From NCBI GenBank assembly GCA_963841855.1, contig CAWJEJ010000001.1, forward strand, positions 1,042,789 to 1,106,788: a DNA stretch of 64,000 bases, given 5' to 3'. A program made the translations under genes and the position numbers. This DNA comes from Rhodothermales bacterium (GTDB taxonomy: Bacteria > Bacteroidota > Rhodothermia > Rhodothermales > BA12). The notes beneath the pieces are model-generated. The model was not told where the DNA came from. It did not search any database and was given only the letters and a program-made list of their open reading frames with translations. Shown piece after piece: positions 287 to 35,868 of the stretch (within the stretch, counting starts at the first letter, position 1; the number at the start of each line of letters is the position of its first letter).

Positions 287-348
287 TTGAGGCCCGGTAC
301 CCGACCAAATCGCGATGGAAGGCAAAGCCCGGAGTATTCGCTGAGGAT

Positions 349-383: not shown

Positions 384-475
384 GAAAGGACTACGACCGT
401 TCGCCGCCGCGCGGTGGGTGTCCGCAGGCGTACAGTTAGCACGCTGGGAACGGCCTCAGAGCGGGTTGCACGGGC

Positions 476-491
476 GGGCACGGCTATTGGA
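476..491 (+). promoter_or_regulatory. weak sigma-54 -24/-12-like motif upstream of the secreted-protein gene
   Basis: GGGCACGGCTATTGGA compared with consensus TGGCACG-N4-TTGCW. GGCACG and the spacing are correct, but the -12 element reads TTGG rather than TTGC. It lies 32 nt upstream of ATG 523. Confidence 0.2.
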
Positions 492-522
492 GATTGTCAG
501 GTACAATCAAACCCCGCCCGCC

Positions 523-945: not shown

Positions 946-992
946 CCGCTGCACGAGCGACGTTTCTACGAAGAGATTTTATTTCAGCTGAT

Positions 993-2309
993 ATGTCTAT
1001 TCTAACGCAACCTCTGATCACGACGTCGGGCGACGGCGGCCCCGTCCGTGGCACGGGCGAGGGCAAAGACGTAGAGCGCGCGCCGAAACCGATCTGGCGC
1101 AAGTGGCTGCCCTACGGCATCGGCGCGCTCGTCGTGCTGCTGCTGATCGCGGCAGCGGTGTGGGCGGGGCGCGGCGGCCAGCGGCTCCGCGTCGACGAGG
1201 ACCGGCTGCGGATTTCGACGGTGGCTAGCGGCGATTTCCTCGAATACGTCGCCGTCAACGCGACGGCTCAGCCGCTGCGGACGATCTACCTCGACGCCGT
1301 CGTCGGTGGGCAGGTGCGCGAACGGTTCGTCGAGGAAGGCGCCATTGTCGAAGCGGGGACACCGCTGTTGCGCTTGGAAAACGACGACCTGACGCTGCGC
1401 CAGATGCAGTCCGAGGCGTCGATGGCTGAGCAGGCCAACGGCATCCGCAACACGCGACTGGCGCTCGACCAAAACCAACTCAACCTGTCGCAGCAGCTCG
1501 CCCAACTCGACTACGATTTGGGCCGAGCCCAGCGCGAACACGACCGGCTCAGCGGCCTGTTCAACCAGGGTCTCGTTCCCGCACGTGAGTACGAAGCCGC
1601 GCGCGACGAACTGGCCTACCTCAGCCGCCGCCGCGACCTGACGCTCCAAAGCCACCGCCAAGACTCGATCACCCGGTCCACTCAGATCGACCAGATGCGC
1701 GGCCAGATGAATCGGTTGCAAGACAACATGTCGTTCCTCGGCCAGACCGTCGACAACCTGATCGTGCGCGCTCCGGTCGCCGGACAGCTGACGAGCCTGG
1801 ACGCCGAGATCGGCGAGCTCAAAGGAGCGGGCAGCAGATTAGGTCAAATCGACATGATCGGCGGCTTCCGGCTGGTCGCGCAGATCGACGAGCATTACGT
1901 CGCACGCGTCGCGCCTGGCCAGCAGGCGACGGCGACGATCAGCGGGACCGACTACGAACTCGAAGTGCGCAAGGTCTACCCCGAAGTCGCCAACGGCCGC
2001 TTTCAGGTCGACCTGGTGTTCTTGGGCGAGGCGCCGCCGTCGCTGCGTCGCGGACGATCCGTACAGGTGCGACTGCAACTGGGTCAGCCCGAGCAGGCGC
2101 TGCTCCTCGAACGCGGCGGCTTCTTCCAGGCGACGGGCGGGCGCTGGGCCTACGTCGTCCGGGGCGGCGAGGCCGTACGCGTACCGATCACGCTGGGCCG
2201 CCAGAACCCGCTCTTTTTCGAAGTCACTGACGGCCTCGCGCCCGGCGACCGCGTCGTGACCTCCAGCTACGACACGTTCGGCGACGCCGACGTGCTGGTG
2301 CTGAACTAG
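993..2309 (+). CDS. HlyD/MacA-type periplasmic adaptor (membrane fusion protein)
   Basis: 438-aa ORF with one N-terminal TM helix (YGIGALVVLLLIAAAVWA), a lipoyl-like hairpin (GGQVRERFVEEGAIVEAGTPLLRLEND), a long coiled-coil stretch and a beta-rich C-terminus. It sits directly upstream of an ABC ATPase. Confidence 0.8.
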   Translation: MSILTQPLITTSGDGGPVRGTGEGKDVERAPKPIWRKWLPYGIGALVVLLLIAAAVWAGRGGQRLRVDEDRLRISTVASGDFLEYVAVNATAQPLRTIYLDAVVGGQVRERFVEEGAIVEAGTPLLRLENDDLTLRQMQSEASMAEQANGIRNTRLALDQNQLNLSQQLAQLDYDLGRAQREHDRLSGLFNQGLVPAREYEAARDELAYLSRRRDLTLQSHRQDSITRSTQIDQMRGQMNRLQDNMSFLGQTVDNLIVRAPVAGQLTSLDAEIGELKGAGSRLGQIDMIGGFRLVAQIDEHYVARVAPGQQATATISGTDYELEVRKVYPEVANGRFQVDLVFLGEAPPSLRRGRSVQVRLQLGQPEQALLLERGGFFQATGGRWAYVVRGGEAVRVPITLGRQNPLFFEVTDGLAPGDRVVTSSYDTFGDADVLVLN

Positions 2310-2314
2310 CCCTT

Positions 2315-2410
2315 GGTCGTCGCGAGCGCAGCGTGGCAATCTCCATGCTCTGCTGCTGCCTCGAAGATCGCCGCGCTGCTGCGCTCGTCGCGATGGCAAT
2401 CTGGGAGCTC
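2315..2410. repeat. composite of degenerate D-type repeat copies in both orientations
   Basis: ggtcgtcgcgagcgcagcgtggcaatctcc, then agatcgccgcgctgctgcgctcgtcgcgatggcaatctgg. Both are related to the 349-383 and 62349-62383 copies. Confidence 0.5.
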
Positions 2411-2438
2411 AGCGCTCTCTCCTTTCCTCTTCATTTAC

Positions 2439-2466
2439 CTCCGACGCAGCATGCTGCGTCGCTACA
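2439..2466 (+). repeat. REP-like element, A type (perfect palindrome gacgcagcatgctgcgtc followed by gctaca)
   Basis: ctccgacgcagcatgctgcgtcgctaca is identical over 28 nt to 3339-3366. It ends 15 nt before ATG 2482. Confidence 0.8.
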
Positions 2467-2481
2467 ATACAACCCGAAACC

Positions 2482-3235
2482 ATGGAAACGCCCACGATCA
2501 CTCCGACTGCTCCGGCTGCTGTTAAAAACGGCGGCGGCACGCTCATCCAGACGCAGGACATGACCAAGGTGTACCGCACCGAATCGGTCGAGACGCAGGC
2601 GCTGGCGGGCGTCTCGCTCGGCGTCAACCGGGGCGCGTTCGTGGCGCTGATGGGGCCGTCCGGCTGCGGCAAGTCGACGCTGCTCAACATCTTGGGCATG
2701 CTCGATCAGCCGTCCAACGGCAAGTACCTGTTCGACGGGCAGGACATCGCGCAGGCCGGGGAGTCGCAGCGGGCCAAACTGCGGCGTGGACGCATCGGGT
2801 TCGTGTTTCAGAGCTTCAACCTGATCGACGATCTGACGGTCTACGAAAACGTCGAGTTGCCGCTGCTCTACCTCAAAACCGACAAGGCCGAGCGCAAGGC
2901 TAGGGTCGAAGCCGCCCTGGACCGCGTCGCGATGCTGCACCGTCGGAGCCACCACCCGCAGCAGCTATCGGGCGGTCAGCAGCAGCGTGTCGCCATTGCA
3001 CGCGCCGTCGTCGCCTCTCCCCCGCTCATTCTCGCTGACGAACCGACGGGTAACCTCGACTCCAAGAACGGCGCCGAGGTGATGAAGCTGCTCGTCGAAC
3101 TCAACGAGGCCGGGCACCACTATCGTGATGGTGACGCACTCGGCCATCGACGCCGAGTACGCGCACCGCGTCGTCAACCTGTTCGACGGGCGCATCGTGA
3201 GCGAGCACTTCGCCAACCAGACAGTCGCGGCGTGA
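2482..3235 (+). pseudogene. ABC transporter ATP-binding protein (MacB/LolD-type), interrupted by one frameshift
   Basis: Walker A GPSGCGKST, signature LSGGQQQRV and Walker B LILADEPT are all present. After ...ELNEAG the frame is lost at the G run 3112-3114. The next forward frame, entered at ggc 3113-3115 (one base into the original frame), reads [40 protein letters not shown] and stops at 3233-3235, which is the normal C-terminus of this family. Confidence 0.8.
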
Positions 3236-3338
3236 CCTCGCTGGCTGCGTTCAACCGCTCCCGCACCGACGGGGCATGCCGCGTCGCCCACGCGGACACC
3301 GCCCGCCTCCCTTAGCCTCCACGCTCTGGCGTGATTCT

Positions 3339-3366
3339 CTCCGACGCAGCATGCTGCGTCGCTACA
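3339..3366 (+). repeat. REP-like element, A type
   Basis: ctccgacgcagcatgctgcgtcgctaca. It ends 11 nt before the proposed GTG start at 3378. Confidence 0.8.
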
Positions 3367-3377
3367 TCTCTCTGATC

Positions 3378-5778
3378 GTGCACGCCATTCGCCTCGCTTT
3401 CCGCCGGTTGCGCCGGCATCCTGGGTTCACGCTGCTCAACGCGTCGGGACTGGCGATTGGGCTGGCGTGCGCGCTGCTGGCGCTGTTCTACATCCGCGAC
3501 GAGATACGCGTCGACCGCTTCCACGAGGATGCCGACCGGATCTACTCGGTCGTCATGACCGACACGCTGCTCGCGCCCGAGACGCCGTCGACGCCCTACC
3601 CGCTGGGGCTGGCGCTGGCGGATCAGGCCGAGGTGACGAGCGTGATGCGGCGCAGCAGCGGTTGGCCTACGCGGATGCGGATAGCAGGAGCGACAAGCGA
3701 AATCCGCCCGCGCGTGCTGATGACCGACGCGGGCTTCTTCGACTTCTTCTCGTTTCCCCTCGTCAGCGGATCGCCTCAGCCCCTCGCCGATCTGAGCGGA
3801 CTGGTGCTCACGCCCGAGACCGCGCAGATGCTGTTCGGCGATGCGAATGCGATGGGCCGCGTCGTCGAAGTATTCAAGCCGTGGCCGACTCCGACGTGGG
3901 TGCCGCTGACGGTGACGGCCATCGCCGCTCCGCCACCCGCGCACTCGACGATTGGGTTTGGTGCCGTCGCCCGCTTCGAGTCGTTGCGCGACGGCTACGA
4001 CGACCCGGACAGCTGGGGCATGAGCAGCTACCGCAGCTACGTCCGGCTCGCGCCCGAGCATCGACGGGGCCGCGTACGCTGCCGGACTTCCCAGCCGCAT
4101 CCAGGCCGTCGACCCCGTCGCCGATCACGTGGGGCGGTCGCCGGTTCGCCGCGCTGCCGATGACGGATTTCTACCTGTCGGGCATCGAGGAGAGCAGCAC
4201 GTTCACGGGCAAGGCAGGCTACATGAAGCTGTTCGGGGCGATTGCGCTCGTCATCCTGCTGATCGCGATTCTCAACTACGTCAACCTCGCCACGGCGAGC
4301 GGCATGCGGATGGCGCGCGAAGTCGGCGTGCGCAAGGCGGTCGGTTCGGGGCGCGGGCAGGTGGCGCGCGGGCTGCTCGTCGAGGCGCTCCTGCTCGTCG
4401 GGCTGAGCTTTGCGCTGAGCGTCGGGCTGGTGCTGCTGGCGACGCCTCTGGTCAACGCGTTCTTCGACAAGGGCATCGTGCTCGGCTGGGACGCGCTGCC
4501 GGTGTGGGCGGGCGCGTTCGGGCTGATGATCGGTGTCGGGCTGCTGGCGGGCGCGTATCCGGCCCTCGTGCTGTCGCGCTTCTCTCCGGCGCGCGTGCTC
4601 AAAAGCGGACCGCAGGGTGCCATCGGCGGGACGTGGCTACGCAGAGGACTGGTCGTGACGCAGTTCGCGGCGACGATTGGGCTGCTCGTCTTTACGGGCT
4701 TCGTCTTCCGCCAACTCGACCACGTCGAGAGCCGCTACCCGATGCCGGACGACAGCCGGCTCGCCGTCCTCTCGCTCGAGCGCGAGTGGGGCAAGCGATC
4801 GGCGACCGTCGAACAGGCGCTGGCCGACCTGCCCGGCGTGATCGGAACGGCGGCGTCGACGGGCGTTCCCGGACAGATCGGCAACCGCTACGGCTTCCTC
4901 CCCGACGGCCCGGACGCCGAGTTCGACATCATCGCCGGATTCTTCGGCGACCGCGACTTCGCCGACCTGCTCGGCATGCCGACCGCCCACGAATCGACCG
5001 ACCTCTCGGTCCCCGGCGCGCTCCGCCTGTTCGTCAACGAAGCGGCGATGCAGCGCTCGGCCCTCGACTGGTCGCCCGGCGTGATCTTCCCCGTCGGCGT
5101 GGTCGAAAACGGCGTCGACGGAAGCAAGTCGACCGAGCTGGCGGGCGTGCTGACGGACTTCCCCTACGAATCGCTCCGCGACCCGATTGCGCCGCTGTTC
5201 TACGCCGAAGCGCCCGACACGTCGCGCTTCCTCTACGTCGTGTCCCGAGTGGCGAGCGACAGCGTCGGCGCGTTTGGGGCCGCGCTTCCTGCCGTCTGGT
5301 CGCAGTTCAGCAGCAGCGCGCCCGAGGTCGAGTTCGTCGACGATTACGTGGCCGAGTTGTACGAAGCCGAGACCAAACTGGCGCAACTGGTGACGCTGCT
5401 CGCCATCGTCGGCCTTCTGGTGGCGTGCCTCGGCCTGTTCGGACTGGCGGCCCACGCGGCGGCGCAGAGGCGCAAGGAAATCAGCGTCCGCAAGGTGCTG
5501 GGCGCAGGCGTCGGCCGGGCTGATCGGTCGGTTGTCGCGCGAGTTCGCCCTGCTCGTCGGCGTGGCGTTCCTCGTCGCCGCGCCGGTCTCGTACGTGCTC
5601 GTATCGGACTGGCTCGACGGCTTCGTCGACCGGACGTACAGTGGGTCCGGGCGTGTTCGCGGGCGTGCTGGCGCTGGTGCTCGTGCTGGCGCTCGTGACC
5701 GTCAGCTACCACGCGTGGCAGGCGGCGACGCGCAACCCCGCCGACGTGCTGCGCGAGCGAATAAAATCGGTGGTCTAG
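3378..5778 (+). pseudogene. duplicated MacB/FtsX-type ABC permease P1, at least 5 frame disruptions
   Basis: The start is inferred as GTG 3378 (VHAIRLAFRRLRRHPGFTLLN) by alignment to P2 MHTLRIAV and P3 MHSIRLAL. The paralog-like sequence can be followed only by switching forward frames near 4059, 4129, 5510, 5640 and 5755. Both FtsX modules are present (NYVNLATASGMRMAREVGVRKAVGS and LGLFGLAAHAAAQRRKEISVRKVLGA). Confidence 0.75.
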
Positions 5779-5826
5779 CTGGTCGTCTGCGGCCTGTTAG
5801 GCTTGCGACGGGACGTCACCTTCTTA

Positions 5827-5856
5827 GGGCGACGAAGGCGTCGCCCCTACACCTCC
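5827..5856 (+). repeat. REP-like element, B type (ggcgac-N-gtcgcc hairpin + cctaca)
   Basis: gggcgacgaaggcgtcgcccctacacctcc. The CTACA ends 10 nt before ATG 5862. Confidence 0.75.
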
Positions 5857-5861
5857 TGATC

Positions 5862-8270
5862 ATGCACACGCTTCGCATCGCTGTTCGCCGGTTGGTTCGG
5901 CATCCTGGATTCACGCTCGCTCAACGCGTTCGGGTCTGGCCGTCGGGCTGGCGTGCGCGCTGCTGGCGCTGTTCTACATCCGCGACGAAACGCGCGTCGA
6001 CCGCTTCCACGCGATGCCGACCGATCCTCGCCGTCACACTGACCGACAGCACGCTGACGAATGGCGATACCTACCTGTCATATCCGGTCGCCGATGCGGT
6101 CGCCAATCTGCCGCAGGTCGAGCAGGCGATTCGGGTGACCGGGTCGCGAACGAGCCGGTTGCGGGTGCCGGGGAGCGATAGCGAGATCGAGAAGCGCCGT
6201 ACTGTTCACCGAGGCGGGCTTTTTCGAGATGTTCTCGTTTCCATTGTCGGCGGGCAATCCGTCCTCGGCACTGAGAGAGCCGAACGAGATCGTTCTGACG
6301 CCCAAGTCGGCGGCAGCGCTGTTCGGCGAGGCCGATCCGGTCGGGCAGACGGTCGAGTACTTCCGATCCGAGCTGGAACGGACCGGGCGAGTGGATTCCG
6401 CTGACCGTCACTGCCATCGCCCTGGCGCCGCCGCACCACTCGACGATCCAGTTCGAGTCGGTCGCCCGGTTCGAGGCGCGCAACGACGACACCTACGGCG
6501 ATCCGGACAGCTGGGGCAATCAGTGGCTCCAAACGTACGCGCGTCTCGTGCCCGGATCGGACGCTGCAGCGTTCGTGGCGGGCATGCCGGATCAGATGGC
6601 GAGCGCCGATCCCGAGCAACACCGACGACAGCTTTTGGGGCCAGCGTTACTACGTGCCCGTCCCCATCGCCGACGTGTACTTCTCGGTCGACCGGTATGG
6701 CAGCCAGTTCACTGGGCAAGCGGCGTTCATGCGACTTGTTCGGGCTGATCGCGCTGGCCGTCTTGATCATCGCTGTTCTCAACTACGTCAACCTCGCCAC
6801 GGCGCGCGGACTGCGGATGGCGCGCGAGGTCGGCGTGCGCAAAGCCGTCGGCGCCGGGCGCGGACAGGTGGCGCGTCAGACTGCTCGTCGAGGCGCTGCT
6901 GCTGGTGTCGCTCGCGTTCGTCGTCGCCGTCGGGATCGTGCTGCTGGCGCTGCCGCTGTTCAACACGTTCTTCGGCAAGAGAAGTCGTGCTGGGCTGGGA
7001 CGCGACTACCGGTCTGGGCGGGCGCGCTCGTCCTGATGCTCGACGTCGGGCTGCTGGCGGGCGCATATCCGGCCCTCGTGCTGTCGCGCTTCGACCCGGC
7101 GCGCGTGCTCAAAAGCGGACCGTCGGGTGCCATCGGCGGAACGTGGCTGCGCAGAGGACTTGTCGTGGCGCAGTTCGCGGCGACGATCGGGCTGCTCGTC
7201 TTCACGGCTTCGTCTTCCGGCAACTCGACTTCATCCAGAACAGCTACCAACTCCCCGACGACGCGCGGCTAGCCGTCCTGCGCACGCCCGACGAGTGGGG
7301 CAACGCGCACGCCAAACGATCAAAGCCGCGCTGGCCGATCTACCGGGCGTGCAAGGCGACCGCAGCGACGAGTGCCGTCCCGGGAAGGGTCGGGATGCGC
7401 TTCGGCATTACGCAGGAAGGCAAGGAGCCGCTGATGATGGCCGTCGTGTCGGCCGACACGCGATTACATGGACCTGATGAGTCTGCCGATGGAGCACGAC
7501 GCGCCCATATCCGGCTCGGATTCGCCGACGCGCGTCTACGCCAACGAGTCGCTGCTGCGAGCGATGGACAAAGAGTGGTCGCCGGAGCTCACGATCCCGG
7601 TCGGCCCCAACGCGTACGGGGGCATGTCGTCGGGCGAGGCGTCGCCGCTGGCGGGCGTGATGACCGACCTGCCGTACGAGTCGCTGCGCGAGCCGATCCA
7701 GCCGATGTTCATCGCCGAGATGCCGGACACGACCGATTTCTCGTACGTCGTCGCCAAAGTGGGCGAGGCGACCTGGAGGCGTTTCAGGCCGCGCTGCCGG
7801 GCGTCTGGTCTCAGTTCAGCGGCAAGGCGCTCGACGTGTCGTTCGTCGACGATTACGTCGCCAAGCTGTACGAGGGCGAGACCAAACTGGCCCAACTGGT
7901 GACGCTGCTGGCGTTCGTCGCCCTGCTGGTGGCGTGCCTGGGTCTGTTCGGACTGGCGGCGCACTCGGCGACGACCAAGCGCAAGGAGATCAGCGTGCGC
8001 AAGGTGCTCGGCGCGGGCGTGGCCGGGCTGATCGGTAGGCTGACGCGCGAGTTCGCGCTGCTCGTCGGCGTCGCGTTTTTGATCGCCGCTCCGGTCGCCT
8101 ACCTGCTCACGTCGCGCTGGCTCGAGGGCTTCGCCGATCGCACGCCGGTCGGTCCCGGCGTGTTCGCGCTCGTGCTGGGCGCGACGCTGCTGCTGGCGCT
8201 CGTGACAGTCAGCTGGCACGCGTGGCAGGCGGCGACGCGCAATCCCGCCGACGTGCTGCGCGACGAATAG
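5862..8270 (+). pseudogene. duplicated MacB/FtsX-type ABC permease P2, heavily frameshifted (about 13-15 frame switches by manual tracing)
   Basis: Starts MHTLRIAVRRLVRHPGFTL and ends ...NPADVLRDE at 8270. In between, the conserved sequence is spread over ORFs 5532-6404, 6229-7272, 6548-6748, 6654-8270, 7127-7477 and 7468-7902 in all three forward frames. By eye it is a close nucleotide match to P1 in blocks such as 7050-7240 versus 4541-4725. Confidence 0.75.
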
Positions 8271-8361
8271 GCGATTCCGTCCGCCCACGCACGGTCGGCT
8301 GTTCGGTGGCGGACGGTCGGCCGAGTCATGATTAGGCGACTGGGGCGCGGTTTCGAGGCGG

Positions 8362-8377
8362 CGGCACGGGCTTGGCG
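8362..8377 (+). promoter_or_regulatory. candidate sigma-54 -24/-12 promoter in the P3 leader
   Basis: CGGCACGGGCTTGGCG compared with TGGCACG-N4-TTGCW. GGCACG is present and the GG and GC dinucleotides are at the correct spacing; there is one mismatch in TTGC. It lies 85 nt upstream of ATG 8462. Confidence 0.3.
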
Positions 8378-8423
8378 CGGTGGTCGGGCGTCGGCTCGGT
8401 TTGCAGGGCTACTTCGACATCAG

Positions 8424-8456
8424 AGGCGACGCACGCGTCGCCCCTACATCACCTCC
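8424..8456 (+). repeat. REP-like element, B type
   Basis: aggcgacgcacgcgtcgcccctacatcacctcc. The CTACA ends 13 nt before ATG 8462. Confidence 0.75.
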
Positions 8457-8461
8457 CGTTC

Positions 8462-10788: not shown

Positions 10789-10800
10789 CGACGGCCTCTC

Positions 10801-10834
10801 AACCATGACATGTCTCTCTAGACACGTCATGTTT
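10801..10834. promoter_or_regulatory. AT-rich palindrome (catgacatgtc family) 13 nt after the P3 stop; possible terminator or operator
   Basis: aaccatgacatgtct-ctct-agacacgtcatgttt followed by t. It is related to the perfect palindrome at 53371-53403. Confidence 0.4.
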
Positions 10835-10979
10835 TACTTCCGCACATCGTCCAATCGTCCGCCGCCGCACGCACGCTGTCCGGCAGCGGACACGGCACAG
10901 CGTTCTGGATGCTAAAAACGTCGCATGGGCGCGAGGCACGCGTTTGGCCTAGCCGGAGGGCACCAACACGGACACGCTC

Positions 10980-13388: not shown

Positions 13389-13396
13389 TGACACCC

Positions 13397-13422
13397 GGAC
13401 GAATCGCAGATTCGCTCCTACG
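13397..13422 (+). repeat. REP-like hairpin + CTAC
   Basis: ggacgaatcgcagattcgctcctacg has stem cgaatc/gattcg. The CTAC ends 16 nt before ATG 13438. Confidence 0.5.
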
Positions 13423-13437
13423 ACACTACCCTGGATC

Positions 13438-15795: not shown

Positions 15796-15967
15796 CATCG
15801 GCCTCTTGCATCTGCCAGGTATTGGAGACCTGATAGGTTTCTACTCCGCCCATCCGTTCACCGGCGCACGGACGCTGTTCGCTGGCGGACAGGCTGGCAC
15901 GCGATTCCGCTGGCTACGGCGCGGTTCGCGCGTCGGCACAGCGTTGGTAAGGTGCGACGTGTCCGGT

Positions 15968-15992
15968 CGACGCGGCGTGCTGCGTCGCTACG
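15968..15992 (+). repeat. REP-like element, A type (degenerate)
   Basis: cgacgcggcgtgctgcgtcgctacg. The CTAC ends 21 nt before ATG 16013. Confidence 0.65.
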
Positions 15993-16012
15993 TTTCTGAT
16001 CTGCTGATTGAT

Positions 16013-18400: not shown

Positions 18401-18518
18401 CTCCGTCCACCGGCGCACGGGCGCTGTTCGATGCCGAACACTCCGACACGCGTTTCAGGCCGCTGAGCCGCGATTCGCGCGTCGGCATAGCGTTGGCGAT
18501 AGAGTTGAGCGCTTACCT

Positions 18519-18545
18519 CGACGACGCCCACGCTGCGTCGCTACG
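18519..18545 (+). repeat. REP-like element, A type (degenerate)
   Basis: cgacgacgcccacgctgcgtcgctacg. The CTAC ends 20 nt before ATG 18565. Confidence 0.55.
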
Positions 18546-18564
18546 TCTCTGTATCACTGCCGAT

Positions 18565-20982: not shown

Positions 20983-21010
20983 TCTGCGCTCGACATCACG
21001 ACGCACTCTC

Positions 21011-21040
21011 TAGGCGACTCGGCGAGTCGCCCCTACACAC
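21011..21040 (+). repeat. REP-like element, B type
   Basis: taggcgactcggcgagtcgcccctacacac. The CTAC ends 7 nt before ATG 21044. Confidence 0.75.
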
Positions 21041-21043
21041 TTT

Positions 21044-23440: not shown

Positions 23441-23458
23441 CGCGCTGCTTTCTCACTC

Positions 23459-23486
23459 CTCCGACGCAGCGTGCTGCGCCGCTACA
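23459..23486 (+). repeat. REP-like element, A type
   Basis: ctccgacgcagcgtgctgcgccgctaca has 2 mismatches to the 2439 and 3339 copies. The CTAC ends 12 nt before ATG 23498. Confidence 0.75.
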
Positions 23487-23497
23487 CACGCTCTCTG

Positions 23498-25879: not shown

Positions 25880-25937
25880 AACTGTGTACCATGTGGGCGG
25901 TCCGCAGAGTAACGTTCAGTAACACTCATACACGGTT

Positions 25938-28283: not shown

Positions 28284-28296
28284 CCGCGCCGCTGGG

Positions 28297-30612
28297 TCAC
28301 CGAGCGACCATCAGTGGGCGGCTCGTCACGACGCCGTCGGCGTGGAGGCGCAGCACGTAGGTGCCCGAGGAAAGAGCGTTCGTCGGCAGCGTGAGCGCGT
28401 GTGCTCCTGCTCCGAACGGGCGAGCATCCACGACGGCGACGCGGCGTCCCAGCAGGTCGTACACCTCGGCTCCGACCAAGCCTGCCGCGCCGATCACGAA
28501 CGAGATGTGCGCCTCGGTTCGAGCAGGATGCGGGGCGATGCGTTCGATGGCGATCGGCCCTTCTAACTCGGCTCCAGACTCGGCCGAGACCGTGCGACTG
28601 GGGAAGAGTCCGGCGAAGGTATTGTCCGTGCGATCGTCTCCGTCGAAGAAGAGGCGAGCGGCGTCGAGCACGCGCATCGGTGGCACCTCGAACCACGCCG
28701 AGAGATCGACCATCTCGCCTTCGATAGCCGTCGCGGTGCCGGGCAGCACGAAATCGTCGCGCGTGGCGTGCACGTAGGTCTGCACGTCGTCCAGCAGCCC
28801 CATCAGATCGACGTGTCCGTCGCCCAAGAGGGTTTCGAGAACGGCGGCGTCGCGCAGAGCGGCGAGTACGTCGTCGGCGGCGTCGGACAGTTCGGGCATG
28901 ACGTCGCGCAGGGCGTCTCCGGCTTCGAGCATTCGGTCGCGGCCCAGCGGCGTCAGGGCGAGGAAGTCCGGGTTGGCCCGCTGGAGCGCGGCGACGACGC
29001 GGAACGGTGTGTCGGCGTTCGAAAAGTCGAGTCTATTGGGATCGAGATACGTGTCGAATCCGGTGTCGGCCTCGTCGAGCAGGTACGTCACCTCGCCTGC
29101 AGCGCGATCGGCGGAACGCGCCAGTCCATCGACAGCCAAAGCGATCGCCTCGACCATGCCCGTCGTGACGACGACAGGCACGAAGTCGCCGTCAGCAACC
29201 GCGTTGGGATCGCCGCCCTCGTCGACGCGCAGGGAGAAGACGAACGCTTCGTAGCCATCGGCGGCGTCGAGCGCGCGCTGGAACTGCTCGGCGATGGCGT
29301 CGGCCCGGCTGACTGCGCCGGTCGCGGCGTCGGCGTGGCGTTCGAGTAGCGTCTCGAAATCGCCCTTGGCCAGCAGCGAGACCGCGTCTTCCAAAGCGCT
29401 CGCGTTGTCGTCGAACACCTGAAACGCCAGCGCCATCGCCAATCCGGCATGCGCGTCGAACGTAGAAGCATTCGCGATCCGAGAGCGGAAGTCGCGCTCG
29501 AGCACCTGGACGCGCGCCCGCAAAACGTCGGATCCCGAGGCCACGCTCAGCGATGCGTCGACGCCCAGCAGGTCGCTCACGTCAGAAGGCAGTCCGGCAG
29601 GCAGCAGGTTGCCGAACGTGTAGGTGCTGCGCGCGGCGGCGGGCTGGCGAAAGAAGTCGAGCACGAGCGGATACAACCCGCCGTCCAACTGCTCGATCAG
29701 AGCGACGGGGCGGATGAGCGTCACGCCGTCCGATAGCAGGTAGCTGCGCCCGTCGAGCGCGGCGCGCACCTCGTCGAAGGCCTGGCCCAACTCGGCGCGC
29801 TCGCCCGTGATCGCGAGTTCGAAGGCGGAAAGCGGCTGAGCGTTGAGCGCCTCGTCCAGAGAGCGCGCGCTCCGCTCGACGCTCAGCAGCAAGGCGCGGA
29901 TCTGAGCCAGGCTGGAAGCGGGCGAGCGGCGATCTTCGGCCAGCGCTGCGATCTGCTCGATGGTGGCGATCAGTTCGAAACCGACCTCCTCGAAATCGGC
30001 TGCGGCATCCAACGCTCCCGTGATGGCATTGCGATCGAAGACGAGCGTGCCAGCGCCCGAGTCCTCGATGCGAAACGAGACCGAGAAGGGCGACGATTCC
30101 AGGCTCAGCGCTTCCAGGTCTCCGGCGAACGTCTGAGCGTAGCGCGCCAGTCCACCGGCCCAGTTCATGACGAGCGTCTGAGTTTCGCTGCTGTGCTCGT
30201 CGAACCCGCTAGCGAGGCGGTTGGCGTCGGCTTCGAGCGCGCGGTAGCGTTCACCAGCGGTCAAGTCGAGCATAGTCCTGGCCAGCTGCTCGGCGTCGCG
30301 AAAGTCCAACCCCTCGAAGTCGCGCTCGTAGATCGTCTGCAGTTGCTCGATTTCGCTCTCGAACAGGGGAATCAGTGTGCCAATGAGGCTGTCGGTCGTC
30401 GTGTGGATGAGCGCGACCTGCACCAGGGCGCGTCCGGCGCGCGCGCGCGACGAGGCGGGCGCGTCGTCGCCGGAGATCTGCGCAGAGAAGGCAGCGTCGT
30501 TCGCGCGCAGGTAGCGCACGTAGTCGGGATCGGACGTGAGTTGGAACGTGAGATCCTGCGCCCAGACGGACGGGGCGAGCAGGGCGACGAAGAGGAGGAG
30601 CGCACGCGTCAT
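28297..30612 (-). CDS. secreted 771-aa acidic, Ala/Leu/Asp/Glu-rich protein with a T9SS C-terminal sorting domain; function unknown
   Basis: Signal peptide MTRALLLFVALLAPSVWAQ. The last ~80 aa (...AHISFVIGAAGLVGAEVYDLLGRRVAVVDARPFGAGAHALTLPTNALSSGTYVLRLHADGVVTSRPLMVAR) have the pattern of Por/T9SS C-terminal domains and resemble the tail of the S8 protease at 38644-41526. The start overlaps the upstream gene's stop (ATGA at 30609-30612). Confidence 0.7.
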   Translation of the reverse strand: MTRALLLFVALLAPSVWAQDLTFQLTSDPDYVRYLRANDAAFSAQISGDDAPASSRARAGRALVQVALIHTTTDSLIGTLIPLFESEIEQLQTIYERDFEGLDFRDAEQLARTMLDLTAGERYRALEADANRLASGFDEHSSETQTLVMNWAGGLARYAQTFAGDLEALSLESSPFSVSFRIEDSGAGTLVFDRNAITGALDAAADFEEVGFELIATIEQIAALAEDRRSPASSLAQIRALLLSVERSARSLDEALNAQPLSAFELAITGERAELGQAFDEVRAALDGRSYLLSDGVTLIRPVALIEQLDGGLYPLVLDFFRQPAAARSTYTFGNLLPAGLPSDVSDLLGVDASLSVASGSDVLRARVQVLERDFRSRIANASTFDAHAGLAMALAFQVFDDNASALEDAVSLLAKGDFETLLERHADAATGAVSRADAIAEQFQRALDAADGYEAFVFSLRVDEGGDPNAVADGDFVPVVVTTGMVEAIALAVDGLARSADRAAGEVTYLLDEADTGFDTYLDPNRLDFSNADTPFRVVAALQRANPDFLALTPLGRDRMLEAGDALRDVMPELSDAADDVLAALRDAAVLETLLGDGHVDLMGLLDDVQTYVHATRDDFVLPGTATAIEGEMVDLSAWFEVPPMRVLDAARLFFDGDDRTDNTFAGLFPSRTVSAESGAELEGPIAIERIAPHPARTEAHISFVIGAAGLVGAEVYDLLGRRVAVVDARPFGAGAHALTLPTNALSSGTYVLRLHADGVVTSRPLMVAR

Positions 30613-32081
30613 CGGTCGAAGCGGTGTAGGTAGGAGAGGGTGTGAGTGGCGCCGCCGCGCACGCGGAGCGGATCGGCGGTGGCAGCAGGAGCCGCTCCCG
30701 TATCGACGAGCGGAATGGACTGATCGAAGGCGTAGCGCACCTCGCCCCGGCCAACCCGGACGGAGGGGAGAAGCGTGAGCCGAAGGGCGGTAAGCCGAAC
30801 GTCTTGGGTGTGGTGCGAGCTAGCGTCCGAGAGGCCGTGGGCGAGCGCTGCGTAGCTGTCGGCCACGATTGCGGCGCGCGCGCGCGTGGCCGACACGGCG
30901 CCGCGCAGGTAAAAGCGGCGGCTCAGCGCGCGCTGGGCCGCGAAGCGCGCACGGAGGGCCACTGCATGCGCCGACGCGGTGCCGCTGAATCGGTGCGAGA
31001 TGGGCAGTGTGCTGCTCACGAGGTATCCCAGGACGGGCGTCGAGACCGACCCTCGCCCCCGCCAGCGCGTCCGGCTAGCCGATACGCTGGCCTCGGCCCA
31101 AGAACCGGACGCACCACGCCGCAGGCGCATCCCTACTCCGCCGCCATGCGCTGCCAGCACCCCGCCGCCCAAGTCGGTGAGGTCGAGCGGACGGCCTTCT
31201 GACGTAGGAACGGCCTCGGGCAGCGCCTGCGCTTCGACGCGCCTCGTCTGGAACTCGCCCTCGGCGGTGATCCACGTAGTGGGATTCAGCGTGCGGCGCA
31301 GCCCGGCGGCGAGGTGAACCGACCGGCTTCGAGTGCTCGTTCCGATCGTCCGGTCGCCCCGCAGCGCGTCGGCGCCCGTGTTGCGGTAGCCGATGCGGAC
31401 CGCGCTCTCGGACGCTCTCACTTCGGCTCGCATGGCGAGTACGTAGCTCCGCGAGAGCGCTCTACTGCCCTCCAAGCCAGACGCAGCCGATCGGTCGGTG
31501 ATCTGGAAACGCTGTTCGCTTCCGAACGTGGGCTCGATGAGATCGAAGAACAGCGTGTTGACGAGCGCGTCGCCCGCGCGCGATGGAAAAGCAGCCACCT
31601 CACTTTGGACGCTCTGCGTCGTTTGCTGAGCGCGCATCCAGATGCGTCCGTAACCGCGCTCACCAGCCGAAGCGAGAGCGAGTCCTCCTCCACCCCCCAC
31701 TCGGGGGGCGAACGACAGAGAAAGGTCGGTGCCGGGATCCCTCCAGCGCAGCGTTCCCTGGCTCCGCTGAACGTCGGCGCGAGCACCCCACGTCCGGCTG
31801 GCCATCCGAACCGGAAACGCAGCGGCCAAACGCGTGCGGCTGCCACTCACGTCCCGAGCGGTCCCCGCGTCGCTGCGCGCCGAGTACGTGTCATCGTACT
31901 GGTGCGACAGGCTCAGCATGGACATCGCCGAGCGTTGGTCTGCGTAGTCGTAGCGCAGTGCGTCCGCTGCGCCCATGGTCAGCGTTTCGTCGATCCGAGC
32001 GCCCAGCGTCTGCGCCGCTATTGGGTCCGCAGATACCATCAGCGCAAGCGCCGAGAGCCATAAAAAACGAGAAGTGCGCAC
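30609..32081 (-). CDS. predicted outer-membrane (beta-barrel-like) protein of unknown function
   Basis: GTG start at 32081 and signal peptide MRTSRFLWLSALALMVSADPIAAQ. Throughout it is rich in Ser/Thr/Arg/Gly/Ala with short alternating stretches, and there are aromatic residues near the C-terminus (...THTLSYLHRFDR). It is translationally coupled to the T9SS-tailed gene. Confidence 0.5.
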   Translation of the reverse strand: MRTSRFLWLSALALMVSADPIAAQTLGARIDETLTMGAADALRYDYADQRSAMSMLSLSHQYDDTYSARSDAGTARDVSGSRTRLAAAFPVRMASRTWGARADVQRSQGTLRWRDPGTDLSLSFAPRVGGGGGLALASAGERGYGRIWMRAQQTTQSVQSEVAAFPSRAGDALVNTLFFDLIEPTFGSEQRFQITDRSAASGLEGSRALSRSYVLAMRAEVRASESAVRIGYRNTGADALRGDRTIGTSTRSRSVHLAAGLRRTLNPTTWITAEGEFQTRRVEAQALPEAVPTSEGRPLDLTDLGGGVLAAHGGGVGMRLRRGASGSWAEASVSASRTRWRGRGSVSTPVLGYLVSSTLPISHRFSGTASAHAVALRARFAAQRALSRRFYLRGAVSATRARAAIVADSYAALAHGLSDASSHHTQDVRLTALRLTLLPSVRVGRGEVRYAFDQSIPLVDTGAAPAATADPLRVRGGATHTLSYLHRFDR

Positions 32082-32490
32082 GGCGAAAAGAGAAAAGTGT
32101 ACCGGGGCGGCTGATTAGCATAACCAATGAACTCTTTCGCGTCAACTACGCGATTACGGTATACGAATCAGTCGGTGCTGCCTGGCGCATCGGAGAATAA
32201 GTCCGAGACCACACGTTGCGTTAGGCTCTGCCTGAGAAGGCAGCGGCCAGACGAGCACAAGTCAGGGGCCACTTTGCCGAGGCTCGCCGAGTGCAGCGCC
32301 GGAAAAACTGCCCCCTGGCCCCGCGCAGCTCCCGAATTGCTGGTTCAGGAGCAGGCCAACCGTTCGCCGACGCGCGCAGACTGTCCGGTTACGGACACCG
32401 CGCCACCGGGAAGGCCGCTCTCGCACGGCTGGAGGCGACGGCATGGCGTTGGCTTTGGTCCGAGGCACCGCCCAACCGACCGCTGCTCTC

Positions 32491-35007
32491 ATGCTCGCCT
32501 CCGCCTTCCGCCGACTCCGCCGCCACCGCCTCTACACCGGACTCAACGTGTTCGGGTTGGCGCTCGGGTTGGCGTGCTGCCTGCTCATCGCCCTGTTCGT
32601 GCGGTCCGAAATGTCGGTTGATGACTTTCACCCGGACAGCGACCGACTCTACCGCGTCAGCCAGCTGAGCGACGGGCCGGGGTCGGAGTTGTGGGCGTGG
32701 ACGGGCGGCGGGTTGTCCCCGAAATTGAAGGCCGACTTTGGCGAGATCGAGCGCGTCGTCCGGGTGATGCGGGACCCCCGGGATGTATACGTGCCGGACG
32801 CCGACGCGCTAGGACTTCCCGCCGAGCCGTCGCGCGAGACGAGCCTGTTCTTCGCCGACCCCGCCTTTTTCGAGGTATTCGGCTTTCCTCTCGTCCGCGG
32901 ACAGGCCGACCGCGTTCTCGATGCCACCGACGCCGTCGTCCTGACCGAGAGCACGGCGCGGCGGCTGTTTGGCGATGCAGATCCGATGGGCCAGACGCTC
33001 GTCGTCGGCGGGCAGACGACGCTGCGCGTGACCGGCATTGCCCAAGATCCGCCGCCGGGCACGCAGCTGCAGTTCGACCTGATCGGCGGGATGTCCGTCT
33101 TCAAGACGCTCAACCGGTTTCCGACCGATGCCGAGTTCGCGTCGTATTGGTGGCCCGACGTTAACACGTTCGCGCTGCTGGCGCCGGGCGCGGACGTGCA
33201 GGCGCTCCAGGCCAAGATGCCCGAGTTCGCGATCCGGCATAGGGGCGAAGAGAGCGGAGCCCAGCACGCGCCCGTTTTGGAAGCGATCGCCGACACTTAC
33301 CTCTATTCCGACGCGACCGGGGCGATCGGCGAATCGGGCAGCCTCGATGCCGTCCGCACATTCACGTCTATCGCGCTGGCCGTCCTGCTGCTGGCCGCGA
33401 TCAACTTCGTCAACCTGACGACGGCGCGCGCCCAGAGTAGGGCCCAAGAAGTCGGCGTGCGCAAAGCCGTCGGCGCCGGACGCGGCGAGCTGATCGCGCG
33501 GTTTCTGGCCGAGTCGGTCGTGCTCAGTTTGGTCGCGCTGGCTCTGGCGTGCGCGCTGGCGTGGCTGGGCGTCGGACTGCTCGAAAGCGTGACCGGCCGA
33601 GCGCTCGACGTGTCCGCGCTGATCACGCCGTCGTTTGCGCTGGCCGCCCTAGGCGCGACGCTGGTCGTCGGACTGCTGGCGGGTATCTACCCGGCGTTCG
33701 TGCTGTCGGGCTTCGAGCCGGTACGCGTGCTCAGAGGAAGCCGCACGTCAGTCGTGGGAGGCGGCAAGGGACTGACGCTCAGACGCGCGCTGGTCGCGAC
33801 GCAGTTCGTCGTGTCGATTGCACTCGTGGCGGCGACGCTGGTCGCCTTGCAGCAAAACCGATTCTTGCGCACGGCTGATCTGGGTTTCGACAACGCGCAG
33901 ACCGTCGCCGTCCAGATCAAGGGCGATCAGGGCTGGGACGCGTTGCGCGATGCGTTGCGCGCGACGGACGGCGTCGAGTCCGTCACGGCGGCGAGCCTGC
34001 GGCCTGGACTGGGCGCAACGCAGGGCCTCCCCTACCGCGTCAGCGGCGACGGCTCGGACCCCGGCGGCTACGGCTCGAACAACCCGCAGGGCGGCGGAAA
34101 CCTGGCCTACGCTTCGGTCACCGACGATTTCGACGAGCAGATGGACCTGCGCGTGCTCGCCGGGCGCACGTTCGGACCGGATTTCCCAGGCGATCAAGGC
34201 GTCGTGCCCGAGCAGACAGCCGGGCGCGTGATGTTTCACGTCTTCGACCGCGGACTGGTGATCAACGAGTCGGCTGCGCGCGTTCAGGGCTGGACGCCTG
34301 ACGAGGCGATCGGCAAAAACTATCGCTTGTTCGCCTATGAGAACGAGGTGTATTTCAGCGACATTCGAGGCACGGTCGTCGGGGTAGTCGAGGACTTCCA
34401 CGTCGCGCCCCTGGGGCAGCCGATCGAGCCGCTGATGCTGATGCGCGCCGAAGCAGGCGACTGGTTTTCGGCCAGCTGGGCGCTCGTCCGCGTAGCTCCG
34501 GGCGACGCAGGCCAGCGCATGGACGCGCTCCGCTCGACGTTTCGATCAGTCGCTCCCAACGCCCCCTTCGTCGCCGACTTCCTCGACGATGCACTGTCCG
34601 ATCGCTATGCCGAGTACGAACGCACCGGCACCCTGCTGGCCCTGTTTGGGATTCTGGGGCTGGGCATCGCTTGCCTCGGTCTCTTCGGACTCGTCGCCTA
34701 CGCCGCGCAGAGCCGCCGCCGCGAGATCGGCGTGCGCAAGGTGCTCGGCGCGAGCGTCGGCCGCCTGACGTGGCTGCTGCTGCGCGACTTCGCCGTCCTG
34801 TCGCTGCTGGCTTCGCTGATCGCCCTGCCGCTGGCGTGGTGGGCGATGAGTCGCTGGCTCGACGGCTTCGCGTACCACACCGAGCTCCATCCGCTCGTCT
34901 TTGCAGGCGCCGCTTTGGTCGTCGCCGCCATCGCCCTGACCACGGTCGCCGGGCACGCCATCCGCGCCGCCACATCCGACCCAACGACCGCGCTGCGCGC
35001 CGAATAA
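32491..35007 (+). CDS. duplicated MacB/FtsX-type ABC permease P11
   Basis: Internal ATG of ORF 32443-35007 (MLASAFRRLRRHRLYTGLNVFGLALGLACCLLIAL). Modules INFVNLTTARAQSRAQEVGVRKAVGA and LGLFGLVAYAAQSRRREIGVRKVLGA. Ends ALRAE. Confidence 0.85.
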   Translation: MLASAFRRLRRHRLYTGLNVFGLALGLACCLLIALFVRSEMSVDDFHPDSDRLYRVSQLSDGPGSELWAWTGGGLSPKLKADFGEIERVVRVMRDPRDVYVPDADALGLPAEPSRETSLFFADPAFFEVFGFPLVRGQADRVLDATDAVVLTESTARRLFGDADPMGQTLVVGGQTTLRVTGIAQDPPPGTQLQFDLIGGMSVFKTLNRFPTDAEFASYWWPDVNTFALLAPGADVQALQAKMPEFAIRHRGEESGAQHAPVLEAIADTYLYSDATGAIGESGSLDAVRTFTSIALAVLLLAAINFVNLTTARAQSRAQEVGVRKAVGAGRGELIARFLAESVVLSLVALALACALAWLGVGLLESVTGRALDVSALITPSFALAALGATLVVGLLAGIYPAFVLSGFEPVRVLRGSRTSVVGGGKGLTLRRALVATQFVVSIALVAATLVALQQNRFLRTADLGFDNAQTVAVQIKGDQGWDALRDALRATDGVESVTAASLRPGLGATQGLPYRVSGDGSDPGGYGSNNPQGGGNLAYASVTDDFDEQMDLRVLAGRTFGPDFPGDQGVVPEQTAGRVMFHVFDRGLVINESAARVQGWTPDEAIGKNYRLFAYENEVYFSDIRGTVVGVVEDFHVAPLGQPIEPLMLMRAEAGDWFSASWALVRVAPGDAGQRMDALRSTFRSVAPNAPFVADFLDDALSDRYAEYERTGTLLALFGILGLGIACLGLFGLVAYAAQSRRREIGVRKVLGASVGRLTWLLLRDFAVLSLLASLIALPLAWWAMSRWLDGFAYHTELHPLVFAGAALVVAAIALTTVAGHAIRAATSDPTTALRAE

Positions 35008-35124
35008 TCCTGGCAGTTCATCAACGATAGATAACCCGTCGCATCCCGCGCATTCCGTACCGACGGGGCATGCCCCGCCGCTAGCACGGCGTCGCACATC
35101 CAGCCAAGCCAGTCACACCGCATC

Positions 35125-35150
35125 CGTACTGCCGTTATACATAACGGCGC
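35125..35150 (+). repeat. REP-like hairpin, F type (gccgttatacataacggc)
   Basis: cgtactgccgttatacataacggcgc. The reverse complement of 42371-42396 differs at one position. Confidence 0.65.
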
Positions 35151-35178
35151 CGCCCAACCCGAAACCGCCTCGACATTC

Positions 35179-35868
35179 ATGATCAAACTCCAAAACCTCA
35201 CCCGCACGCACCGCCAGGGCAGCAGCCAGGTATTCACGCTCCGCGACGTATCGCTCGACGTGCCCGCCGGGCAATTCGTCACGCTCGTCGGCCCGTCGGG
35301 AGCGGGAAAGACGACGCTGCTCCACATCCTAGGCCTGCTCGACGGTCCGACTTCGGGCACGTACGAACTGGACGAAGTCGAGGTGAGCAATCTATCTGAG
35401 AAGCAGCGCACGGCCTACCACCGCGACGCCATCGGCTTCGTGTTTCAGGCCTACCACCTGATCGACGATCTGACCGTCGCGGAGAACATCGAAGCGCCTC
35501 TGCGCTATGCCAAAGTGCCCCGCGCCGAACGCCAGGGCCGCGTCGCCGAGATGCTCGACCGCTTTGGACTCTCGGCGCGCGCCGACCTGTTTCCGCCCCA
35601 GCTCAGCGGCGGCCAGCAGCAACTCGTCGGCGTCGCCCGCGCGCTCGTCATCCGACCCAAACTCGTCCTCGCCGACGAACCGACGGGCAATCTCCACGCG
35701 CGCGACGGCCAGGCCGTGATGGACGCCTTGCGCGAGTTGCACGACGAAGGCGTCACTATCCTCCACGTCACGCACAACCCGGCGTGGGAAGTCTACGGCC
35801 AGCGCACCGTCGAGCTCGAAGACGGCCGTATCGTCCGCGACGAAGTGGTGGAAGCCGCCGCCGCGTGA
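35179..35868 (+). CDS. ABC transporter ATP-binding protein (MacB/LolD-type), intact
   Basis: Walker A GPSGAGKTT, signature LSGGQQQLV and Walker B LVLADEPT. 229 aa. Confidence 0.9.
   Translation: MIKLQNLTRTHRQGSSQVFTLRDVSLDVPAGQFVTLVGPSGAGKTTLLHILGLLDGPTSGTYELDEVEVSNLSEKQRTAYHRDAIGFVFQAYHLIDDLTVAENIEAPLRYAKVPRAERQGRVAEMLDRFGLSARADLFPPQLSGGQQQLVGVARALVIRPKLVLADEPTGNLHARDGQAVMDALRELHDEGVTILHVTHNPAWEVYGQRTVELEDGRIVRDEVVEAAAA

Follow-up and report, generated by a model that had tools for sequence, protein, structure and literature searches.

We describe here a locus in a Rhodothermales bacterium at which eleven related permease genes of the MacB/FtsX type lie together with one gene for a periplasmic adaptor and two genes for ATP-binding cassette (ABC) ATPases. 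The locus is part of a 64-kb stretch of DNA (assembly GCA_963841855.1, contig CAWJEJ010000001.1; G+C about 66%), here called the window, and our comparisons of gene content cover those 64,000 nt. A tblastn search with the protein of the fourth copy (10980-13388) recovers 11 homologous copies, all on the plus strand and between 3372 and 35004. Direct-repeat analysis gives the same number independently, with a 91-nt family of 11 members spaced at 2404-2605 nt and one jump of 6724 nt across a gap. We number the copies p01 to p11. Eight of them are intact and have 781-838 aa after start refinement, in agreement with the roughly 780-840 aa given in a first-pass annotation that had been made from the letters alone. 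The starts chosen for p06 (16013), p07 (18565), p08 (21050), p09 (23498) and p11 (32491) lie downstream of the longest open reading frame (ORF) start; an alternative ATG for p11 at 32443 falls within the promoter-like element of composite 6. The annotation had described an array of eleven plus-strand permease genes. Number and strand hold, but p01-p03 are not intact genes as read, and p10 and p11 are separated by two minus-strand genes (28297-30612 and 30609-32081). Its excess of permease over ATPase genes is confirmed, with 11 permeases against two ATPases in the window. Pfam and tblastn over the 64 kb likewise agree that there is only one adaptor gene (993-2309) and that the two ABC ATPase genes are the only ones of their kind. 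The features of the locus are listed below; a composite element is an upstream activating sequence (UAS)-like palindrome followed by a sigma-54 promoter-like block.

1-191, minus strand: N-terminus (receiver domain) of an NtrC-type, sigma-54-dependent regulator, read directly from the sequence; the gene extends beyond the window
419-490, plus strand: composite element 1, with UAS-like TGTCCGCAGGCGTACA at 419-434 and sigma-54-like GGCACGGCTATTGG at 477-490
520-945, plus strand: small secreted protein of 141 aa with a signal peptide (from translation), first gene of predicted unit 1
993-2309, plus strand: periplasmic adaptor of the HlyD/MacA type, 438 aa (Pfam HlyD_3, HlyD_D23)
2482-3235, plus strand: ABC ATPase 1, 250 aa after removal of an inserted C at 3115 (Pfam ABC_tran)
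3378-5764, plus strand: permease p01, frameshifted (frame path 3, 2, 3, 1)
5862-8270, plus strand: permease p02, heavily frameshifted (at least five frame changes)
8300-8376, plus strand: composite element 2, before p03 (UAS 8300-8315, promoter-like 8363-8376)
8462-10788, plus strand: permease p03, two frame changes (frame path 2, 3, 1)
10877-10948, plus strand: composite element 3, before p04 (UAS 10877-10892, promoter-like 10935-10948)
10980-13388, plus strand: permease p04, 802 aa, intact (Pfam MacB_PCD and two FtsX; TIGR03434 296 bits)
13438-15795, plus strand: permease p05, 785 aa, intact, the copy chosen for the AlphaFold2 model
15876-15948, plus strand: composite element 4, before p06 (UAS 15876-15891, promoter-like 15935-15948)
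16013-18400, plus strand: permease p06, 795 aa, intact (Pfam)
18425-18497, plus strand: composite element 5, before p07 (UAS 18425-18440, promoter-like 18484-18497)
18565-20982, plus strand: permease p07, 805 aa, intact (Pfam)
21050-23440, plus strand: permease p08, 796 aa, intact (Pfam)
23498-25879, plus strand: permease p09, 793 aa, intact (Pfam, NCBIfam)
25938-28283, plus strand: permease p10, 781 aa, intact (Pfam)
28297-32081, minus strand: insertion of two unrelated genes, 28297-30612 (771 aa) and 30609-32081 (490 aa)
32382-32453, plus strand: composite element 6, before p11 (UAS 32382-32397, promoter-like 32440-32453)
32491-35007, plus strand: permease p11, 838 aa from the ATG at 32491 (tblastn, Pfam, NCBIfam)
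35179-35868, plus strand: ABC ATPase 2, 229 aa, intact (tblastn, NCBIfam)

The permeases are type VII ABC permeases composed of two directly fused, MacB-like units with four transmembrane (TM) helices each. Their layout is TM1, a MacB_PCD domain and an FtsX module, followed by TM5, a second extracytoplasmic domain and a second FtsX module, giving eight TM helices in total. The first-pass annotation had read them as duplicated MacB/FtsX-type proteins, and profile searches with hidden Markov models (HMMs) as well as the predicted fold agree. In all eight intact copies Pfam finds MacB_PCD and two FtsX stretches (PF02687, 70-103 bits against a cut-off of 25.5), and MacB_PCD (PF12704, 62-117 bits, cut-off 27) is matched in two stretches in six of the eight. 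When their frames are joined, p01-p03 match the family HMM over positions 3-795. The C-terminal LR(D/S/A/G/H)E end noticed earlier holds for the eight intact copies, p02 and p03; p01 as read ends in LRER owing to a +1 insertion at 5758, and in LREE once this insertion is removed. An AlphaFold2 model of p05, built from 66 sequences (mean per-residue confidence, pLDDT, 87; predicted TM-score, pTM, 0.80), shows eight TM helices, mixed alpha/beta extracytoplasmic domains at 57-274 and 458-644, and short helices following both TM2 and TM6, where MacB has its coupling helix. Foldseek against the PDB returns E. coli YbbP (9GE6) as top match (E 5e-19), then MacB (E 3e-13), with further matches to Spr0694/5, LolCE (LolE E 4e-10), BceB (E 4e-9), YtrF and HrtB; a sequence search of the PDB matched MacB and the Porphyromonas periplasmic domain 3IS6. 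Because two MacB-like four-helix units with two different extracytoplasmic domains are fused in one chain, each permease is a built-in pseudo-heterodimer. Concerning family membership, the annotation had proposed a check against the TIGRFAM model of the ADOP permeases. TIGR03434 (NCBIfam) indeed aligns over its full length (positions 2-803), with 225-322 bits in the four copies tested, while the curated cut-off of 622.3 bits is not reached by any of these four. Since these scores are well below the 622-bit cut-off, the proteins are best classified, by sequence, as ADOP-like relatives outside the ADOP subfamily as NCBI defines it. The next NCBIfam match is DarB, with 37-124 bits against a cut-off of 700.

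The eleven copies are strongly diverged. Pairwise identity within the array is 27-38%, except for p01 and p02, which share 56%. Averaged over the eight intact copies, identity amounts to 44% in the N-terminus with TM1, 27% in extracytoplasmic domain 1, about 39% in FtsX module 1, 35% in the linker with TM5, about 25% in extracytoplasmic domain 2 and 46% in FtsX module 2. The extracytoplasmic segments are thus the most variable, as had been suggested, with roughly 24-27% against 38-46% in the membrane modules, and divergence is not uniform along the proteins. Variation is concentrated outside the membrane, although to a moderate degree that is usual for this superfamily. Conservation is highest in the C-terminal tail and in the cytoplasmic segments that follow TM2 and TM6. 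Orthologues of p05 with 44-59% identity are present in many Rhodothermales, in other Bacteroidota and even in Acidobacteriota assemblies. As p05 is closer to these foreign orthologues (44-59%) than to its array neighbours (27-38%), sequence comparison indicates that the paralogs separated long ago instead of arising in a recent burst. The low identity of 27-38% between copies also led us to reject misassembly as the source of the array. Clear orthologues in other Rhodothermales arrays were found only for p04, p05 and p11 (43-52% identity), and the remaining ones match every copy at about 35-40%; therefore, the set of copies in an array turns over from genome to genome.

The adaptor is of the MacA/DarC type. 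It passes the TIGR01730 RND_mfp model (101 bits, cut-off 94.9), and its best NCBIfam match is DarC, with 164 bits under a cut-off of 450. The two ATPases are 51% identical to each other and both score best against the DarD, LolD, MacB and FtsE models. DarD gives 216-236 bits (cut-off 375) and is the top model for ATPase 1, while for ATPase 2 the MacB model NF007826 (223 bits) lies slightly above DarD (216 bits), both under their cut-offs. By these scores, the putative partner ATPases belong to the MacB/LolD/FtsE clade. The small protein at 520-945 has no Pfam match; its start codon is conserved in the two closest related loci, L001 and L002.

How the locus may be controlled is indicated by its longer intergenic regions. 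Five of these align over about 150 nt, and each contains the motif TGTYCG-N4-CGRACA (a TGT-N10-ACA palindrome) and, 42-47 nt further on, a block GGCAY-N4-TTGGY in keeping with the GG-N10-GC rule of sigma-54 promoters. The exact promoter-like block precedes p03, p04, p06, p07 and p11. Element 1 (GGCACGGCTATTGG at 477-490) fits only with a 5-nt spacer; it lies 30 nt ahead of the small ORF with which the adaptor operon begins, and both of its blocks are conserved in L001 and L002. A relaxed composite, with GGCAY-N4-5-TTGG, covers all six elements and occurs in 0 of 200 simulated sequences; all six instances are on the plus strand directly upstream of locus genes, at a fixed spacing of 58-63 nt. 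The regulator in the window is encoded divergently (minus strand, 191-1). Its orthologue in L001 comprises Response_reg, Sigma54_activat and HTH_8 domains and is followed by a histidine kinase. Among 80 adaptor loci retrieved, 54 have at least 4 kb of upstream sequence, and 45 of these carry the regulator, in most cases divergent and accompanied by the kinase. In several Rhodothermales loci (L005, L008, L017 and L023) the canonical motif GGCAT-N5-TTGC is present ahead of the adaptor gene, and a 2025 survey reported predicted sigma-54 promoters enriched upstream of COG0577 permeases in Bacteroidia (PMC12316311). From these motifs and the conserved neighbourhood we infer a putative sigma-54 regulon, driven by the divergent NtrC-type regulator and its kinase. 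The six elements predict about six transcription units, whose start sites would lie about 12 nt downstream of 490, 8376, 10948, 15948, 18497 and 32453:

unit 1: small ORF, adaptor, ATPase 1, p01, p02
unit 2: p03
unit 3: p04, p05
unit 4: p06
unit 5: p07, p08, p09, p10
unit 6: p11, ATPase 2

Four of the six predicted units (p03; p04-p05; p06; p07-p10) are permease-only, and for these an ATPase, and the adaptor, must therefore come in trans. The kinase of L001 (6150-7595, minus strand) has two N-terminal TM helices with a loop of only about 10 residues between them, a topology of intramembrane-sensing kinases that is reminiscent of BceS-type kinases, which sense via their ABC transporter. Near-canonical sigma-54 matches on the plus strand were also seen outside the array, at 56307-56320, 57429-57442 and 60774-60787, and their sequence suggests wider use of sigma-54 in the organism. 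Among them, GGCACCGCGTTTGC occurs twice in identical form about 40-55 nt before the ATG of ORFs without a Pfam match, and GGCATCAGGTTTGC at 56307 lies about 80 nt before the start of ORF 56403-57365.

The permease-rich, ATPase-poor layout is common in relatives. In 22 of 35 related loci with 10 kb of sequence downstream of the adaptor, permeases outnumber ATPases, and in 15 of the 35 a single ATPase at most accompanies 2.5 or more permease equivalents. A Rhodothermales array of seven permeases or more lacks any ATPase within 22 kb, and in Tunicatimonas an orthologue stands solitary with no ATPase nearby. A published 42-kb cluster of Psychroflexus torquis holds ten ADOP paralogs with accompanying transporters and is highly expressed (PMC3914696). 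The layout is hence not unusual, and here the first-pass annotation overstated its case. Dyadobacter genomes carry 28-33 ADOP copies (PMC11573002), and our full-text literature searches returned almost nothing else on the ADOP-like family. Of 62 related loci, 26 have a TolC-family gene immediately ahead of the adaptor; these 26 all belong to the Bacteroidia type, and the arrangement supports by homology a role in tripartite efflux. In another Rhodothermales array (L081, 17155-22013) we observed a PadR regulator, a 415-aa gene with MacB_PCD only and secreted proteins with tails of the type IX secretion system (T9SS) between the permease genes; the link to PadR is reminiscent of the ADOP neighbourhood in acidobacteria.

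Several characterized systems resemble parts of this locus. With the ADOP family it shares proteins of about 800 aa with a tandem TM/MacB_PCD/FtsX duplication, present as many and often clustered paralogs with few or no adjacent ATPases; what sets it apart is the linkage of the array to an adaptor, two ATPases and a sigma-54 two-component system, together with scores well below the ADOP cut-off. DarBCD (NF038008, NF038010, NF038007) likewise combines a duplicated permease of about 780 aa with a MacA-like adaptor and a separate ATPase, but the scores here are far under the equivalog cut-offs, there are eleven permeases instead of one, and no precursor-peptide or radical-SAM gene was seen in the window. 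The type VII ABC fold, MacB_PCD and a MacA-like adaptor are common to MacAB-TolC, and TolC is adjacent in the Bacteroidia homologues. MacB, however, is a homodimer with a fused N-terminal ATPase, whereas here the halves are fused, the ATPase is separate and no TolC is found in the window. YbbAP(-TesA) (PDB 9GE6; PMC12646458) and BceAB also use one polypeptide with two FtsX modules and a dimer of a separate ATPase, and YbbP is the best structural match of the modelled p05 at a sequence identity of about 14%. YbbP and BceB have 10 TM helices, two of them linker helices (PMC5985334), in contrast to the eight in our model, and YbbAP and BceAB have one permease per system. In the fused forms the ATPase is always a separate protein, with a BceA:BceB ratio of 2:1 (PMC5985334). 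By analogy, the natural unit is inferred to be one permease with an ATPase dimer; the earlier count of roughly one ATPase unit per permease needs correction in this sense, since the proper unit for a fused double permease is permease to ATPase dimer, as in YbbAP and BceAB. The closest mechanical analogue is LolCDE, in which LolC and LolE, different FtsX-type halves, share one LolD dimer, although these halves are separate genes and the system is an essential single-copy lipoprotein sorting machinery without an adaptor.

One part of the array is disrupted. Frame paths, derived from the family HMM against the three forward frames and from a phase plot of third-position G+C (GC3), reveal three frame changes in p01, at least five in p02, two in p03 and one in ATPase 1, together at least 11 in 8.3 kb. 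The single change in ATPase 1, at 3115, accords with the earlier statement that the ATPase gene at 2482-3235 is broken and that at 35179-35868 intact. All changes are confined to 2482-10788; the paralogs of the next 19 kb are free of them, and elsewhere too none is evident. Rhodothermales metagenome-assembled genomes of sample MFD03250 supply the closest loci, L001 and L002, whose adaptors are 95% and 92% identical to that of the window. Aligned to these loci, nearly all changes are single-base (+1) insertions in otherwise conserved context, for example at 3115, 4057, 4125, 5512, 5637, 5758, 5918 and 5929. In L002 the orthologues of ATPase 1 and p01 are intact. Deleting one inserted C at 3115 restores the 250 aa of ATPase 1, with neighbouring differences being synonymous, and on either side of the shift the protein is 97.6-100% identical to the L002 orthologue; for p01 the identity is 75%. 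Ratios of nonsynonymous to synonymous substitution rates (dN/dS) between window and L002 are 0.115 for the adaptor, 0.034 for ATPase 1, 0.25 for p01 and 0.146 for p03, so that purifying selection has acted for essentially all of the divergence. The GC3 phase is retained across the frameshifted genes, and no in-frame stops occur beyond those the shifts themselves create. L001 is 86% identical in DNA to window 1-3232, and its 1.5-Mb contig stops exactly at the equivalent of window 3232, which suggests that an assembly trouble spot probably lies here, in a strain-variable region. Searches for an intact p01 of the same strain returned only the fragment of the same assembly and more distant relatives. 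We consider it probable that the frameshifts are local assembly or polishing errors in a structurally variable region, rather than gene decay.

Overall, we lean, by a little more than an even chance, towards reading the locus as a MacAB-like system for envelope efflux or extraction, with a bank of 11 anciently diverged permeases, an ATPase acting in trans, a sigma-54 regulon and artefactual frameshifts. It would belong to the type VII ABC systems that work by mechanotransmission. As in YbbAP, BceAB and LolCDE, a homodimer of an ATPase encoded by its own gene would bind to each permease, and the NtrC-type regulator with its kinase would drive about six units as one sigma-54 regulon. The permease-only units would obtain ATPase and adaptor in trans, most simply from the two ATPase genes at the array ends. 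The conserved cytoplasmic coupling segments would permit docking of a common ATPase, and substrate or partner would differ from complex to complex owing to the diverged extracytoplasmic domains. ATPase sharing across the array is plausible, and the idea gains strength from the permease-only predicted units and from how common the pattern is in relatives. A number of observations weigh against this reading. The gene count covers 64 kb of the genome only, leaving room for ATPases elsewhere, and in L037, L058, L074 and L075 ATPase and permease genes are interleaved one to one. Pfam scans matched no TolC/OEP domain in any ORF scanned in the window, the sizeable ORFs included, just as the first-pass annotation had seen no obvious TolC-like gene, and no TolC-family gene was present in any Rhodothermales locus examined; TolC could be encoded elsewhere in the genome. 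Regarding regulation, the -12 box is TTGG(C/T) and not the canonical TTGC in all six predicted promoters, no rpoN is visible in the 64-kb window, and generic scans of the window for sigma-70 promoters and intrinsic terminators were not above shuffled expectation, the terminator-like matches all lying inside genes. Finally, the deposited assembly has the same breaks (512-aa fragment P0125), and gene decay as their cause, though doubtful, keeps an appreciable share of the probability.

We weighed three alternative explanations. If ATPase 1 and p01-p03 were genuine recent pseudogenes, the working system would consist of one adaptor, eight permeases and one ATPase. It would fit this that the frame changes, 11 at least, all fall within 2482-10788 and spare both the 19 kb of paralogs that follow and other genes, as would the fragments called here in the deposited assembly too and the fragment-length permease calls in a related ENA contig (P0124, P0134). 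Gene decay in bacteria is usually biased towards deletions, however, and the changes seen here are almost exclusively +1 insertions. The lack of in-frame stops other than shift-made ones, the preserved codon-position bias, the low dN/dS and the break of the closest relative's contig at the same point, suggesting an assembly trouble spot, speak against decay as well, and we regard recent pseudogenization as unlikely. Somewhat less probable still is that each permease has a dedicated ATPase encoded outside the window and that the array is mere tandem duplication with no shared engine. Interleaved ATPase-permease loci do exist in relatives, and solitary orthologues without a nearby ATPase (e.g. 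in Tunicatimonas) demonstrate that pairing in trans over distance clearly happens, yet most arrays that adjoin the same adaptor and regulator are rich in permeases and poor in ATPases, and co-regulation from the same type of UAS argues for one functional unit. We give only a small chance to the view that some paralogs are mainly ligand-sensing partners of an intramembrane-type kinase, like BceB for BceS, instead of exporters. It draws on the resemblance of the L001 kinase, with its two N-terminal TM helices and loop of about 10 residues, to intramembrane-sensing kinases and on the tight linkage of two-component system and ABC genes in 45 of 54 loci; the regulator, by contrast, is NtrC-type and not of the OmpR type of Bce modules, and the adaptor, along with the TolC gene in Bacteroidia, in a conserved operon points to efflux.

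A MacAB-like system with its ATPase in trans may extend to a modular platform, in which up to 11 interchangeable permeases, under separate sigma-54 promoters and one two-component system, draw on a single adaptor and a single ATPase dimer (of ATPase 1 and/or ATPase 2). This seems possible rather than probable to us. If true, the cell could swap extracytoplasmic specificity domains on a common engine, and the system would be an exporter-side analogue of energy-coupling factor (ECF) transporters or of the MsiK-type ATPases shared by importers. Such sharing has so far not been demonstrated for the MacB/FtsX superfamily.

The two minus-strand genes between p10 and p11 overlap. The gene at 30609-32081 encodes 490 aa with a signal peptide, has only two homologues in 5.8 billion proteins and, judged by sequence, may be a beta-barrel; that at 28297-30612 encodes 771 aa with a signal peptide and a weak T9SS C-terminal sorting domain. 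We considered the pair as an outer-membrane partner of the pump and rejected this, because the same pair stands among unrelated housekeeping genes in L083; it is thus an unrelated insertion and not a pump component. Most genes of the array are further preceded, about 13-30 nt before their start codons, by GC-rich perfect or near-perfect palindromes followed by CTAC (GTAG on the other strand):

2442-2465, plus strand: hairpin before ATPase 1
3342-3365, plus strand: hairpin before p01
5827-5850, plus strand: hairpin before p02
8425-8447, plus strand: hairpin before p03
13397-13421, plus strand: weaker hairpin before p05
15968-15991, plus strand: hairpin before p06
21013-21036, plus strand: hairpin before p08
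23462-23485, plus strand: hairpin before p09
263-286, minus strand: hairpin before the regulator gene
62423-62446 and 62476-62498, plus strand: further hairpins outside the array

Their orientation is such that all would form in mRNA. In L002, L004, L006 and L008, permease genes likewise have such hairpins ahead of them, with self-complementary stems of other sequence. The elements look like GTAG-tagged repetitive extragenic palindromic (REP) sequences, and at least nine copies in the locus are intergenic GC-rich palindromes of 20-40 nt with a GTAG tag, by which REPs are recognized (PMC3733652). At gathering thresholds no Rfam family was matched in the window, so the hairpins are not a described RNA family. 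A permissive search for a hairpin plus CTAC gave as many hits as in shuffled sequence, and only the perfect-stem instances are meaningful; in MAFFT alignments, stems whose loops have 2, 3 and 4 nt did not fall into a common register.

In the remaining part of the window, dnaA and dnaN at 47378-50519 (plus strand), about 12 kb downstream of the array, place the locus near the probable origin of replication; the cumulative GC skew reverses near 34 kb. The segment 56001-58000 has a G+C content of 56%, compared to about 65% elsewhere, coincides with ORFs 56403-57365 (plus) and 57362-59026 (minus), both without a family match, and may be foreign DNA. An S8 peptidase with a T9SS sorting tail (38539-41526, plus strand) and genes for MotB and FliL (50748-52024, plus strand) were also noted, and the organism thus seems to possess flagellar components as well as type IX secretion.

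The locus is a large and genuine example of a known, widespread and poorly understood kind, and does not represent a new kind of system. Among the paralog expansions of Acidobacteriota and Bacteroidota that still lack an explanation, that of the duplicated ADOP-like permeases is one of the largest, with dozens per genome, and there is almost no functional work on them. With 11 permeases, two ATPases, one adaptor and a neighbouring sigma-54 two-component system, and with recognisable predicted operator and promoter sites before the permease-only units, the locus offers a compact and testable case. If ATPase sharing holds true, the principle of a shared engine, so far a matter of ABC importers, would extend to exporters of the mechanotransmission type, and this would explain why these permeases so often look orphaned.

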